32,000 nt of DNA from Telmatocola sphagniphila. GTDB taxonomy: Bacteria > Planctomycetota > Planctomycetia > Gemmatales > Gemmataceae. The position numbers and the translations under genes were made by a program. Shown here piece after piece: positions 6,925-19,271 of this stretch. The notes under the pieces were generated by a model that was given only the letters and a program-made list of their open reading frames with translations, did not search any database and was not told the origin of the DNA. The number at the start of each line of letters is the position of its first letter. Position 1 is the stretch's first letter. The stretch spans positions 5,790,001 to 5,822,000 of the forward strand of contig NZ_CP074694.1 of assembly GCF_018398935.1 (NCBI RefSeq), in the 5' to 3' direction.

Positions 6925-7244
6925 CCTCCCCGTTCGGACGGGAATACTCATCACTTCCGGCTCATATCCTCGGCTGGATCATCGTCGCGAACTTGCCTCG
7001 CCAGTCCAGCCGTTTGTGGGGTTCGTAACCTCACAGTAGGCTTCTACTGGCAAAAGTTTTGTCACTAAGAATTCCGTTCAATACTTGCTGCGAATGGGAC
7101 GAGCAGCGATTTTGATAGGCTCGCCGGTACTTCAGCTAGGCATGGGATGGATTTGGGCCATATTTGGGGACGTCGGTCTGGCCAGTCCACCAATCTGTAT
7201 TAACGATAATACAAAATAGAGACTCTAACACCAAGATCTCGCGA

Positions 7245-7544
7245 CTACCCTATCTCGTCCCGGAGATCCCGTAATTCTTTCATCATTTGAGAGATCTTGT
7301 TTATGTTTCGTCTGACTTTTCGAAGATTTTCGCCATTTTTCACTCGTAGAAGCCCGTTCCGGGCTGATTCTGCCTTCCCTTGGGAGGTTTTCGGGCCTGT
7401 CGACAACAACCAGGGCTTCACCCGGTAAATGGCCAATCGAAGCTTGGCCTTACCAATAGAAGAGATTGGTCCACGCTTGGATCTGTTGAGTTTTCCTGCG
7501 GCTACACGCTTGGGGTTGGGGCTCTTTTTCGGGGGTGTTTCCAT
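7245..7544 (-). CDS. hypothetical basic protein (99 aa) with duplicated GP-x-[ST]-x-x-GKA...RVK motif
   Basis: The ORF shows an internal repeat, RGPISSIGKAKLRLAIYRVK / TGPKTSQGKAESARNGLLRVK, and a charged helical C-terminus. It is the last gene of a three-gene minus-strand cluster. Confidence 0.55.
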   Translation of the reverse strand: METPPKKSPNPKRVAAGKLNRSKRGPISSIGKAKLRLAIYRVKPWLLSTGPKTSQGKAESARNGLLRVKNGENLRKVRRNINKISQMMKELRDLRDEIG

Positions 7545-7604
7545 TGGGAAATTTCTCGTACTTAATTGTTCGATGCCAAAAAAATCAAAAAAAACTAACT
7601 TTAG

Positions 7605-7640
7605 CTAAAAAATGCCGGCCCTCCCCTAGAGTGGGCCGGT
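7605..7640 (-). terminator. rho-independent terminator after the 7647-8192 gene
   Basis: The minus-strand RNA forms CCGGCCC / 11-nt loop / GGGCCGG (7615-7621 pairing with 7633-7639), followed by CAUUUUUUAG. It starts 7 nt past the stop codon. Confidence 0.6.
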
Positions 7641-7646
7641 TGGAGG

Positions 7647-8192
7647 TCAAGCGACCTTGGCTACACTCAGCTTGGGCTTTGCGTGGTGGGCTTTCGGGGA
7701 TTTCCTTGATCGAATCGTCTCGATCGTGCGACGAAGTTCGCTGTTCAGCCTATTAGAGGCGGTATTCAAGATTTTCGTTGCGTCGTGTGACTGCGATTTG
7801 ATCGCATCGCAGCGCAAGATCGACAGCTGCAGGTGCATGAACGCAGCTTGCTCGATCAGGATCTTCTCTAGCGGGTCACTCGGGTTCCCAGCTTCTGCAA
7901 TCAGCCGATCCAGGTAGCAACGAATGGTGTCGACATCGAATGCGCTTTTGGCTGCGAGAGCGACGGACATCTGGTGCGGGACGAACAGCTTCATCAACAC
8001 ATCTGCGTAGTGAGCAGATCTCTGACTCTGCAAGTGCTTATCTTCGTCGAGACCGGCTGGTGGTGGTTCTGAAGGCTCAGTCCGTTCCTGAGGCCCTGGT
8101 GTCGCCTGCTCCGCGGACTCCGGGCCTCCAGATCGAGGTGCTCCCGAAAGGTTCGGATCAGTGCTCTGTTCCGTAGGTTTTGGTTTTTTCAT
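7647..8192 (-). CDS. hypothetical protein (181 aa); P/E/S-rich N-terminus, helical C-half
   Basis: The ORF overlaps the upstream ORF by 4 nt (ATGA at 8189-8192). The C-half contains LEKILIEQAAFMHLQLSILR. No catalytic motif is recognised. Confidence 0.6.
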   Translation of the reverse strand: MKKPKPTEQSTDPNLSGAPRSGGPESAEQATPGPQERTEPSEPPPAGLDEDKHLQSQRSAHYADVLMKLFVPHQMSVALAAKSAFDVDTIRCYLDRLIAEAGNPSDPLEKILIEQAAFMHLQLSILRCDAIKSQSHDATKILNTASNRLNSELRRTIETIRSRKSPKAHHAKPKLSVAKVA

Positions 8193-17416: not shown

Positions 17417-17447
17417 CATTTCAGTGGAAAGTTAAAAAGGACTCTGA

Positions 17448-17750
17448 GTGGGTATCAGAATATTTCGGCGGTATGGACGACTAGGTAGGGGGTATGAGAA
17501 ATGGAAGCAGACGATAAGCAACCCCTCAAAATGCTCACTTAACCCTTTGCTCGTCGACGCAAGGGAAGCGGCCCGGCTTCTGGGTATCGGTGCTCGCAAG
17601 CTCTGGGAGATCACCAATACCCGCGAACTTCCAGCGGTGCGTATTGGACGAGCGATCCGCTACGACATGGCCGACATTCGAGCGTTCATCGAGCGGGCGA
17701 AAGACAAGCCGTTTATCGTTCGCATATCTCAAAATCGGCCGCTGGGTTAA
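17448..17750 (+). CDS. xis: excisionase-family helix-turn-helix DNA-binding protein
   Basis: The core reads LLVDAREAARLLGIGARKLWEITNTRELPAVRIGRAIRYDMADIRAFIERAK, the excisionase/MerR-like HTH pattern. The true start may be TTG 17547, because the listed GTG 17448 adds 33 non-conserved residues. The gene sits directly upstream of the integrase. Confidence 0.75.
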   Translation: MGIRIFRRYGRLGRGYEKWKQTISNPSKCSLNPLLVDAREAARLLGIGARKLWEITNTRELPAVRIGRAIRYDMADIRAFIERAKDKPFIVRISQNRPLG

Positions 17751-17771
17751 ACTCAATTCGTAACAAAGCAA

Positions 17772-19265
17772 ATGAGGTCCTTCAAGATGGCAAGCACGAA
17801 GCGAACACATGGGCAGGGGACTCTTTATCGTGCAAATGGCGAAGGGGCCTGGATTGCTTCCTGGTATGACTACCTCGGGAAACGTCGGAAACGGTCCACA
17901 CGGACCACCGACAAGCGGACCGCCGAACGTATCTTATCGAAGATCGTTTCAGATGAAGCGTTGCGGCGGGAGGGTTTGATTGATCCGGCTGAGGAGAAAT
18001 TTCGGGACGCTTCGAATATCTCGATTGCAACCTATTTGCAAGAATTCGAGGCCTCTCTCTCTGCTGCAAACCGGGATCCGAAGCATATCGCATCAACCCT
18101 TCGAGCAATTCGCCAGATCGCAAAATTTGCGGGTTGGAGCACGCTTGGGCAGATGGAACCGACGGGAGTAAATCGCTACGCGACGGAACTTAAAAGAACG
18201 AATTCACTCCGAACTGTTCAGGCCCATTTGACGAGCATCAAATCCTTCACTCACTGGCTGATCCAGACGGGGAAACTTTCTCGAGATCCTTTAGCGTCGG
18301 TCACAAAGCCGAATCCGAAACTTGGAAGGAAACGGGAAAGACGAATGCTTCTCCCCGAGGAGTGGAGCTGGCTTCGAGCTTCGACAGAATCGGGGCCGAT
18401 GCTTTGCGGTATGAATGGTCACGAAAGGATGCTCTTTTATGCTCTGGCGATTCAGACCGGACTCCGATCGAGCGAGTTGCGGAGTTTGACCCGGGGACAA
18501 TTACACCTCAGCGGGGAAAACCCTTTCGTTACCTGCAAGGCGGGATCTACCAAGAACGGGAAAGATGCGCGACAGTATATTAAACGGGAACTGGCAGAAG
18601 CCCTAGCGGGGTTGGTGCAGTCAAAAATGTCTCATATACCCGTCTTCAATCTTCCAGAAGCCTCTCGATTGGCGGACATGATCCGAAAGGATCTGGCGGC
18701 GGCAAAGTCCGCATGGATTCAGGAAGCCGAAAGAGATGAGGCGGAAACCCGCCGTCGTAAAGAATCGGATTTTCTCTCCGCAAAGAACTTCAGCAGTCAG
18801 GAGCTTGATCTACACAGCCTACGGCACACCTGCGGAGCGTGGTTGGCTCAATCGGGCGCCCATCCCAAGTCGATTCAGACTGTGATGAGACATAGCTCGA
18901 TCACCCTGACCATGGACACCTACGGTCATTTATTCCCTGGCCAGGAGGCGGCAACCGTGGCTGGATTCCCGGATATGCTGGGGATCAATGGGAAGACTAT
19001 AAACGATAACATTTCGGAGAATATCCTGGCAGAGCGCGGTAGCTATTCTGGTAGCAATCAGGGTGCGTTTCCGTGCGTGCTGCGTGCGAGCCAGTGCGAG
19101 ATGGGAAGCACTGCTGAGCAACCTGCGATCGGTTGTAACCCTGTAATTACTGGGGATTTATGCGAAACAGTGCGAGAGGATGCGACAAAAAGTGAGAATG
19201 CCCCCTCACGGGCTCGAACCGTGGACCCGCTGATTAAGAGTCAGCTGCTCTACCAACTGAGCTAA
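17772..19265 (+). CDS. int: tyrosine recombinase / phage-type integrase with long C-terminal tail that runs into tRNA-Lys
   Basis: 497 aa (alternative ATG 17787, MASTKR). The arm-type N-terminus is GQGTLYRANGEGAWIASWYDYLGKRRKRST. Catalytic motifs are AIQTGLRSSEL (Arg I), LHSLRHTCGAW (H-x-x-R) and ITLTMDTYGHL (Tyr384). The last 22 codons (19199-19265) are antisense to the tRNA. Confidence 0.9.
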   Translation: MRSFKMASTKRTHGQGTLYRANGEGAWIASWYDYLGKRRKRSTRTTDKRTAERILSKIVSDEALRREGLIDPAEEKFRDASNISIATYLQEFEASLSAANRDPKHIASTLRAIRQIAKFAGWSTLGQMEPTGVNRYATELKRTNSLRTVQAHLTSIKSFTHWLIQTGKLSRDPLASVTKPNPKLGRKRERRMLLPEEWSWLRASTESGPMLCGMNGHERMLFYALAIQTGLRSSELRSLTRGQLHLSGENPFVTCKAGSTKNGKDARQYIKRELAEALAGLVQSKMSHIPVFNLPEASRLADMIRKDLAAAKSAWIQEAERDEAETRRRKESDFLSAKNFSSQELDLHSLRHTCGAWLAQSGAHPKSIQTVMRHSSITLTMDTYGHLFPGQEAATVAGFPDMLGINGKTINDNISENILAERGSYSGSNQGAFPCVLRASQCEMGSTAEQPAIGCNPVITGDLCETVREDATKSENAPSRARTVDPLIKSQLLYQLS

Positions 19266-19271
19266 AGGGGC
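19199..19271 (-). tRNA. tRNA-Lys (anticodon CUU), 73 nt, no encoded CCA
   Basis: Hand-folded cloverleaf: GCCCCTT TA GCTC AGTTGGTA GAGC A GCTGA CTCTTAA TCAGC GGGTC CACGG TTCGAGC CCGTG AGGGGGC A. The acceptor stem is 7 bp with one G-U pair. The T-loop TTCGAGC is canonical. The anticodon loop is CU-CUU-AA. Confidence 0.92.

Follow-up and report, generated by a model that had tools for sequence, protein, structure and literature searches.

Introduction

Integrative elements that carry their own DNA polymerase have so far been framed around family B, with casposons, pipolins and polintons as the known cases, and they have been used to argue that viruses, plasmids and transposons interconvert. Pipolins encode tyrosine recombinases, often lie at tRNA genes and carry a variable cargo (PMC5695915, PMC7385651). 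[quoted passage not shown] (2020). Here we analyze a 32,000-nucleotide stretch of Telmatocola sphagniphila DNA (contig NZ_CP074694.1, positions 5,790,001 to 5,822,000), referred to as the window. It contains an element of ~12.3 kb, at ~6925-19198, with host genes on both sides. This element encodes a predicted primase from the superfamily of archaeo-eukaryotic primases (AEPs), a predicted superfamily 3 (SF3) helicase and a family-A DNA polymerase (PolA), together with a tyrosine integrase that runs into a tRNA-Lys gene.

Other described systems share parts of this composition. Integrative and conjugative elements of actinomycetes (AICEs) are 9-24 kb long, have int and xis genes at a tRNA gene and a replication module that is sometimes a Prim-Pol, and occur in integrated and replicative forms; the review that describes them lists Prim-Pol modules and no polymerase (PMC2440964). 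Kazlauskas et al. (2018) described AEP-bearing integrated elements, not with the combination considered here. AEP-PolA fusions in Planctomycetota, within a Hot Spring/Aquificae-like group of PolAs, were reported by Czernecki et al. (2023), with no genomic-island context given, and auxiliary chromosomal PolAs that have no prophage link, APEX and CHEAP, also exist (PMC10201439). A preprint on the planctomycete plasmidome deals with RPA-type replicons, and primases and polymerases go unmentioned in it.

The region ~6925-19198 of the window is probably an integrated, plasmid-like, self-replicating mobile element, one member of a recurring family found mainly in Planctomycetota. An earlier note on this DNA had proposed an integrase-bearing island with its own primase, helicase and PolA core that is neither a prophage nor an integrative and conjugative element. 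The recurrence of the family and the negative results of the searches with hidden Markov models (HMMs), both presented below, support that proposal.

Replication proteins of the element

The polymerase gene (11049-13334, minus strand) encodes a PolA of 761 residues with a 3'-5' exonuclease domain, which matches PF00476 (1e-43) and, in the PDB, 8jrb (7e-30) and apicoplast Prex (1e-22). It carries the acidic residues of Exo I-III, the Asp and the steric-gate Glu of motif A, the R/K/F residues of motif B, and HDE in motif C. The conserved Tyr expected of family-A polymerases at position B4 of motif B is absent. The motif (residues 456-472) reads NFGTPGGMG, with Gly at the position of Klenow Tyr766 (B4). 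This Gly468 is invariant in 24 family members, whose motif B is NFGxPGG(M/L)G, and PGG[LM]G is also the rule in ~75 related PolAs on IMG/VR phage contigs. According to Czernecki et al. (2023; PMC10201439), B4 is conserved, with only DpoZ substituted, and helps to discriminate between dNTPs and NTPs. A PolA clade with Gly in place of this near-universal Tyr is a candidate for unusual substrate selectivity.

The two remaining replication genes are translationally coupled, the start of the helicase gene overlapping the stop of the primase gene by 1 nt (TAATG). The primase gene (15485-16267, minus strand) encodes 260 residues with a C-terminal four-Cys Zn ribbon, and its product has no sequence-level match in Pfam, PHROG, NCBIfam or the PDB. 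The helicase gene (13650-15485, minus strand) encodes a 611-residue helicase-type NTPase of the D5/E5 type. Structure prediction was needed for both proteins because their identification from sequence only failed (phmmer and hmmsearch against Pfam, NCBIfam and the PDB), the PHROGs yielding matches to the helicase domain only.

The AlphaFold (AF2) model of the primase has a predicted local distance difference test score (pLDDT) of 90.8, and its top Foldseek matches are all AEPs: the PrimPol of S-2L (6zp9, E 5e-5), RepB' (3h25), CAPP (7nqd), E5 of monkeypox virus (MPXV), human PrimPol and the pRN1 enzyme (1rni). In an alignment of 33 homologues, residues D62, D64, H113, R158 and N164 are invariant, and D147 and K166 are present in at least 90%; the ribbon cysteines are likewise either invariant (C213, C216, C236) or present in at least 90% (C232). 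According to the model, then, the 260-residue protein has the AEP fold with motifs I (DxD), II (sGxGxH) and III (D).

The helicase model (AF2, pLDDT 83) is matched by Foldseek, with probability 1.0, to SF3 helicases that act together with primases: vaccinia D5, MPXV E5, the NrS-1 protein, the PrimPol of African swine fever virus (ASFV), PriRep1, SCCmec Cch (5dgk) and the SV40 large T antigen (LTag). Across 20 homologues, G245/K246 of Walker A and D292 of Walker B are invariant, N293 of Walker B is present in at least 90%, and N340 of motif C and R351/R366 are conserved. The modeled core is an SF3-type AAA+ fold that bears an Arg finger and the Asn of motif C besides the two Walker motifs, and the protein is a predicted SF3 helicase. 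In the locus sampled twice as L047 and L048, AEP and helicase core are fused into a single protein of 450 residues, and several AEP homologues of 790-920 residues have the AEP at the N terminus (AEP-SF3 fusions).

A recurring element family

The order AEP, SF3, gap, PolA recurs in at least ten further loci, at 35-46% identity to the window, in Gemmata, Isosphaeraceae and metagenomes; the search for the same gene set in relatives, suggested in the earlier note, was thus successful. By cassette homology, the family loci are L044 (Isosphaeraceae EP7), L045, L046, L047/L048, L049, L071, L072, L074 (Gemmata sp. G18) and L075, to which two JGI contigs are added from gene tables only. Among the elements with host genes visible on both sides, L047 measures ~9.6 kb, L044 no more than 13.4 kb, L072 14.8 kb and the window element 12.3 kb.

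The family is rare and patchy. The AEP profile found 284 representatives among 1.84 billion, 135 of them at E <= 1e-30, and one AEP homologue comes from a metagenome-assembled genome (MAG) of Dermatophilaceae. For PolA, the family comprises no fewer than 222 members at E <= 1e-30. The metagenome scan yielded mostly contigs of 1-8 kb, which are of little value for genomic context.

The core of the family is an AEP with a Zn ribbon, an SF3 protein, a gap of ~300 bp with repeated motifs and an exonuclease-bearing PolA. To this core are joined an exchangeable recombinase module and a largely variable cargo.

The helicase-PolA gap as a candidate origin

The 315-bp gap between the helicase and PolA genes (13335-13649) is a candidate replication origin. 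Its GC content is 0.44, against 0.53 for the window, and an A+T-rich stretch in it adjoins the start of PolA. Copies of (C/T)GGTTA(A/G)G lie at 13384 and 13401 on the plus strand and at 13473 and 13550 on the minus strand, i.e., two per orientation. Four of the ten GGTTA[AG]G sites in the window fall within the gap, where 0.1 would be expected.

Across the family, the gap is ~230-480 bp long. In most members its GC content is lower than that of the member's own locus, and it contains short motifs in both orientations that are nearly absent elsewhere in that locus. The gaps of the relatives hold 5-12 copies of element-specific 8-mers. The motif GGTGAACC occurs 12 times in the gap of L046 and not once in the remaining 20 kb, and five times in the gap of L044, with two copies in the rest of that locus. 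For TGGTGGAT, the counts are nine in the gap and one in the rest of the locus in L049, and eight and none in L072; TGGTGAAC is present six times in the gap of L045 and once outside it. In the gaps of both L074 and L075, GGTGA(A/G)T occurs twice in forward and twice in inverted orientation.

The motif varies from element to element while its position is kept, a pattern to be expected if the motifs are bound by an initiator and co-evolve with it. The origins bound by SV40 LTag and papillomavirus E1 are built of pairs of forward and inverted sites, and the layout of the gap appears comparable to them. Clustered motifs, an A+T-rich segment and a nearby initiator gene are also the features of a theta-type origin, which makes the gap a candidate for one.

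The earlier note had described an AEP primase with a coupled SF3-like NTPase, a 315-bp AT-rich repeat region between helicase and PolA, and a 761-residue PolA with Exo I-III and polymerase motifs A-C. The first is corroborated by AlphaFold, Foldseek and the conserved catalytic residues, the second by the GC content and motif counts, and the third by the Pfam, PDB and motif checks.

Integration modules

The element is bordered on its right side by a tRNA-Lys(CTT) gene (19199-19271, minus strand; found by ARAGORN, and by Rfam as RF00005 with 68 bits), the 3' end of which faces the element and which is the presumed integration target. The tyrosine integrase gene (17772-19265, plus strand) encodes 497 residues, with matches to PF00589 (3e-15, over residues 221-387) and phrog_1 (5e-38), and shares 67 nt with the tRNA gene in antisense. 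As its catalytic domain extends only to about residue 387 of the 497, a tail of ~100-110 residues is left with no match. This tail (18933-19265) ends inside the tRNA gene of the opposite strand, and the integrases of the relatives have 390-435 residues; the tail may be a product of integration, which would have joined the 3' end of int to host DNA.

On the same strand lie two smaller genes. An excisionase-type helix-turn-helix (HTH) protein is encoded at 17448-17750 (HTH_17, PF12728, 2.6e-11; TIGR01764 "excise", 1e-6; phrog_66), and a 291-residue protein with a C-terminal CxxC...CxxC Zn ribbon at 16541-17416. The latter has no Pfam or PDB match, and its PHROG matches are confined to residues ~220-275, where they cover the Zn-ribbon portions of the PHROG families; its role is presumably regulatory or DNA-binding. 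In the open reading frame (ORF) map, its gene diverges from the primase gene, and the intergenic region (16268-16540) is probably a control region. The promoter-like sites in it, at 16474-16502 (plus strand) and 16524-16495 (minus strand), are no more numerous than in shuffled sequences. Profile searches, ARAGORN and Rfam thus recover the integrase running into tRNA-Lys, the HTH excisionase and the Zn-ribbon protein where the earlier note had placed them.

A recombinase gene is found beside the cassette in the window and in nine relatives, and none is visible in L046 and one JGI contig. Four members are tRNA-adjacent, at the 3' ends of tRNA genes for Lys (window), Asn, Ser and Val. The integrases of L045, L071 and L072 are related to one another (42-45% identity), and all three loci encode a DUF1580 protein; an ORF of ~440 residues is common to L045 and L072 at 24% identity, and the L071 ORF in that position has no match. 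Between the window, L044 and L047, the integrases can barely be aligned. Upstream of the AEP-SF3-PolA block, Gemmata sp. G18 encodes a 572-residue large serine recombinase with Resolvase and Recombinase domains (L074:3430-5148, JAGKQQ010000001.1), with no tRNA gene nearby. The recombinase modules have been swapped: besides one clade of related integrases, the family uses several integrases that are unrelated, and in one case a large serine recombinase.

The DUF1580 protein belongs to a planctomycete-specific Pfam family and is encoded upstream of the primase gene (L045:8301-8603, L071:8830-9144, L072:6934-7236). Given that it holds the position that HTH_17 has in other members, it is suggested to be a DNA-binding regulator of these elements. 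Upstream of its cassette, L075 has two neighboring tyrosine integrase genes that point in opposite directions (2701-3696 and 4035-5300), which may reflect a tandem insertion beside another element. In L049, several transposase genes (DDE_Tnp_1, DDE_3) interrupt the span between the integrase gene and the HTH and primase genes (3320-8623).

Element ends and genomic setting

The host is a member of the Gemmataceae (Planctomycetota), and the locus tags KIH39_23245, KIH39_23250 and KIH39_23255 on a 6.59-Mb contig correspond to exact window proteins. Both flanks consist of planctomycete-type genes. On the left are an esterase, a GH26 protein, an extracytoplasmic function (ECF) sigma/anti-sigma pair and a metallophosphoesterase with its stop at 6924; on the right are an ABC-2 permease, an S1/P1 nuclease, an ABC ATPase and a PSCyt/PSD1 protein. 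The S1/P1 nuclease gene (20783-21748) separates the genes of the ABC ATPase and the ABC-2 permease, which are directly adjacent in most of the related genomes that were fetched.

The distal end lies in the zone between the metallophosphoesterase stop and the ORF of 99 residues (6925-7244). The left end at 7041 given in the earlier note is not confirmed, since the end can be placed only within this zone and is not marked by an attachment (att) repeat. As no att repeat was found, the ends are placed by gene content. When the window, L075 and L046 were aligned, the terminal sequence beyond the 99-residue ORF presented no conservation.

Several observations weigh against the reading of the region as a mobile element, or against parts of it. 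A direct repeat of the tRNA 3' end at the distal end was found in none of the four tRNA-adjacent members, so that the ends of the element and its recent mobility are putative. Exact k-mer matching, blastn-short and Smith-Waterman alignment with shuffled controls were used to compare the 3' part of the tRNA and the spacer with the distal ends, and only matches at chance level were found in the window, L045, L047, L072 and L044; in the window, no 7-mer is common to the 6925-7244 zone and 19185-19275, and no att duplication of 11 nt or more was found in the 32 kb. One contig scan with the flanking ABC-2 permease gave no empty site, the nearest genomes of the collection having at most 53% identity in this protein and neither synteny nor a neighboring tRNA gene. 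An exact-protein lookup returned the left flanking protein in the same strain only. The GC content of the element, 0.516, is barely different from the 0.527 of the right flank, and the gap motifs of the window are fewer and more degenerate than those of the relatives.

To the same side belong lesions in some members. The PolA gene is split at motif A, into 407 + 337 residues, in L047 (10116-12365) and L048 (7972-10221), two independent samples; the PolA of L071 (12096-14393) has lost the acidic residues of Exo I, II and III (FAFRGKGT, AAGELD, LAWEAF); and L046 is frameshifted. Hence, some family members look decayed or altered. The unassigned ORFs, finally, were tested at the level of HMMs and sequence, at which a divergent capsid or transfer protein could escape.

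The missing att repeats would fit a host-domesticated cassette for DNA repair, damage tolerance or defense that lies beside an old integrase gene, as would the existence of APEX and CHEAP and a weak PADLOC match of PolA to the defense-associated reverse transcriptase (DRT) profile "RTasPolA" (6e-9). This match covers the generic polymerase palm region, however, and the cassette travels with a recombinase gene, occupies different loci and tRNA genes, and has had its integration modules swapped. The motif-rich gap is typical of origins, and the family is rare and patchy. We consider domestication very improbable.

Cargo and gene classes searched for

The distal module (7245-9046, minus strand) comprises three ORFs of 285, 181 and 99 residues, the last encoding a very basic protein. 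The module is present in the same order in L075 (15021-16815; tblastn 1e-9, 5e-22 and 7e-15), and the 181- and 99-residue ORFs recur in L046 (19393-20215; tblastn 8e-16 and 8e-12). None of the three has a Pfam, PHROG, NCBIfam, PADLOC or PDB match. The earlier note had left five ORFs with no assignment, and this stands in so far as function is concerned; three of them, those of the distal module, are nevertheless conserved element genes in relatives and not random cargo.

The other two are overlapping cargo ORFs of 134 and 383 residues (9266-10818, plus strand). The 134-residue ORF (9266-9670) overlaps the start of the 383-residue ORF by 4 nt, and it matches only the C-terminal 65 positions of DUF6304 (PF19822, 4e-14). 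The pair has no homologue in the related loci and no PHROG, PADLOC or PDB match; searches of the PDB by sequence were likewise negative for the 383-, 285- and 291-residue ORFs. The Rfam (beyond the tRNA), PADLOC, promoter and terminator scans of the window yielded nothing further.

In the nine window proteins, no HMM of Pfam, PHROGs, NCBIfam or PADLOC assigned a capsid, portal, terminase, tail, relaxase, type IV secretion system (T4SS), FtsK or defense function, which bears out, at the HMM level, the absence of virion, relaxase and T4SS genes claimed in the earlier note. The matches listed for the 44 accessory ORFs from the window, L044-L047 and L049 are only to methyltransferases, ParB, a nuclease, HTH proteins, LRR/HEAT repeats and DUFs. 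Over all 12 Pfam families and the best 25 of 38 PHROG families, none of the matches listed is to a virion, relaxase, T4SS, FtsK or defense protein. The major capsid, portal and terminase genes of a Caudoviricetes prophage were thus not detected at this level in the window and the 44 ORFs. In no ORF tested was there a match to PolB or Cas1, family A being the sole polymerase, and no PHROG or Pfam match was obtained for the packaging genes terS, cpm or sid/psu/delta. Apart from the 285/181/99-residue module (L075, partly L046), accessory genes are not common between members. A ParB_N gene follows PolA in L049.

These results bear on an AICE-like conjugative or mobilizable element, in which double-stranded DNA would be transferred by a single translocase, or the element mobilized in trans via an unrecognized oriT. 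The layout of the element is similar to that of AICEs, which measure 9-24 kb and combine int and xis, placed beside a tRNA gene, with a replication module of the Rep or Prim-Pol kind (PMC2440964). Remote homologues of the helicase are found on small Streptomyces and Saccharopolyspora plasmids, and the Dermatophilaceae AEP homologue points the same way. Yet neither FtsK/SpoIIIE (TraB) nor relaxase, Nudix or spread genes were detected with Pfam and PHROG in the window and relatives, and PolA is not known from AICEs, so that such an element is a highly unlikely explanation.

Relation to viruses and plasmids

Cultured phages have only distant PolAs, at no more than 27% identity to that of the window. 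Many IMG/VR contigs, of 20-70 kb, encode a PolA that is 28-34% identical along the full length, and the four of these that were scanned encode terminase, DnaG-type primases, helicases, RecE/RecT and PhoH. Neither the AEP nor the SF3 protein of the cassette was found in any of 79 viral loci, and the AEP profile, applied to IMG/VR as a pattern scan, had no match. L075, a 50-kb contig classed as viral by IMG/VR, was reached through PolA only.

Remotely homologous to the helicase are Rep-type "bifunctional primase/polymerase" proteins encoded on small plasmids of Streptomyces, Saccharopolyspora and Methylobacterium, and other remote homologues occur in phiCbK-like phages. Since PolA is phage-related, the cassette mixes plasmid-type and virus-type parts, as replication modules of mobile elements usually do.

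This relatedness of the PolA clade to phage PolAs, together with the pseudogene-like lesions of some relatives, is what a decayed prophage would leave if it had kept only its integration and replication genes. Against it, gene order is compact and long ORFs are intact at 35-46% identity, at no fewer than ten loci in different genera and at different sites. Because the same compact order is kept at all these places, independent decay is implausible. Moreover, no fragments of structural genes were found, and the related phages use other primases and helicases, with no AEP or SF3 match in the 79 viral loci. There is thus hardly any probability left for a prophage remnant.

More weight is due to a phage satellite of the P4 type or of the phage-inducible chromosomal island (PICI) type, which would replicate with its own cassette after induction by a helper phage and be packaged in helper capsids. 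It would account for a size of 10-15 kb, for the layout of integrase, HTH and primase-helicase genes with adjacent repeated motifs, and for the missing structural genes. Outside the family, PolA has its nearest relatives on contigs of uncultivated phages (terminase, primase, RecE), and L075 is classed as viral in IMG/VR. Nonetheless, neither terS nor any gene related to capsid remodeling, cos/pac or helper interference was detected with PHROGs and Pfam among the 44 accessory ORFs (window, L044-L047 and L049). No accessory gene is common across members beyond the 285/181/99-residue module, and the pattern scan of IMG/VR with the AEP profile gave no match. The satellites described so far are not known to carry a full DNA polymerase, which the family has. 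A satellite is an unlikely explanation on balance, and an integrated plasmid-like element remains the reading that we prefer.

Proposed mechanism and significance

Under the preferred reading of a self-replicating mobile element, the integrase and the HTH excisionase would excise the element beside the tRNA 3' end as a circle. LTag of SV40 and E1 of papillomaviruses are SF3 initiators that load on pairs of inverted sites. By analogy, the SF3 protein of the element, either by itself or jointly with the Zn-ribbon primase, would recognize the motif pairs of the gap, assemble there and melt the adjacent A+T-rich DNA. The AEP, judging from its fold and catalytic residues, would synthesize primers, and the PolA of the element would extend them with proofreading. 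Given that the element's own PolA would extend the AEP primers, initiation and elongation would need little host input.

A more far-reaching interpretation is also a real possibility, if a tentative one: the family may be a family-A counterpart of the PolB "self-synthesizing" elements. It would then be a capsid-less Planctomycetota lineage with a near-complete minimal replisome (AEP, SF3 and a proofreading PolA with Gly at B4), an origin of inverted pairs like those of SV40 and papillomaviruses, freely swapped integration modules and no detectable att duplication.

If true, a conserved, non-viral, recombinase-borne family with AEP, SF3 and PolA would be an independent solution alongside the family-B elements, and a phage-type PolA clade would be linked to a plasmid-like lifestyle. 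Planctomycetota are a phylum with few genetic tools, and the element would provide them with a replicon that is compact and independent of the host and that has a defined candidate origin.

Comparison with known systems

Pipolins are reported to be flanked by direct repeats, whereas none was found at either end of the window element. Like pipolins and casposons, the element is integrative, non-viral, of similar size and equipped with its own DNA polymerase. Those elements, however, have a family-B polymerase (piPolB, which does not need a primase, or pPolB), with Cas1 in casposons, while a PolA with a separate AEP and SF3 protein is present here. The element hence lacks the family-B polymerase of its own that marks self-synthesizing elements. 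With regard to tRNA islands in general, the integrase gene is next to the tRNA 3' end, and no attL/attR repeats were found.

The SCCmec elements are similar in being integrative and in combining a family-A polymerase homologue with a helicase; the helicase model of the window matches Cch (5dgk), and the Gemmata sp. G18 relative also uses a large serine recombinase. On the other hand, the window encodes a full-length PolA that has Exo I-III, the AEP is the presumed priming enzyme, and there is no relation between the hosts, the integration sites (rlmH versus tRNA) or the sequences. Neither Ccr serine recombinases, an rlmH insertion nor an exonuclease-less CCPol with MP is found in the window. 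The statement of the earlier note that integrating polymerase carriers are mostly PolB carriers omits temperate phages with PolA and the CCPol of SCCmec (PMC7581432, PMC10201439).

As for AICEs, int, xis and a rep-like gene are present in the window. An FtsK-like TraB, spread genes and Nudix are features of AICEs that were detected neither in the window nor in the relatives, and no DNA polymerase is known from AICEs. P4-like satellites and PICIs resemble the element in the integrase, the HTH regulator, a primase-helicase with an adjacent repeat-bearing origin, compactness and the small number of virion genes. They differ in having no polymerase of their own and in their sid/psu/delta, terS and cpm genes, which were undetected in the window element at the HMM level.

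The pairing of AEP and SF3 is also known from poxvirus D5/E5, ASFV C962R, phage NrS-1 and ORF904 of pRN1, to which the structural matches and the fused proteins of some relatives correspond. In contrast with these primase-helicases, the two are here usually encoded by separate coupled genes, and the AEP is short (~250 residues) with a four-Cys ribbon of its own. With regard to PolA, the apicoplast Prex enzymes, which belong to the Hot Spring/Aquificae-like group of Czernecki et al., are besides 8jrb its best solved relatives, a likeness given by the PDB matches; the clade of the window differs in its invariant Gly at B4, a position that this paper treats as conserved.

In the literature searched, which leaves most subscription papers outside, nothing relevant was found on a PolA-based self-synthesizing or integrative element, and a prior description is possible. 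The suggestion of the earlier note that the element falls outside any described family is in agreement with this literature, which contains no description of it. The kind of element is known, in that integrative elements with their own replication module, some of them with a polymerase, have been described; its PolA-based variant appears to be new.

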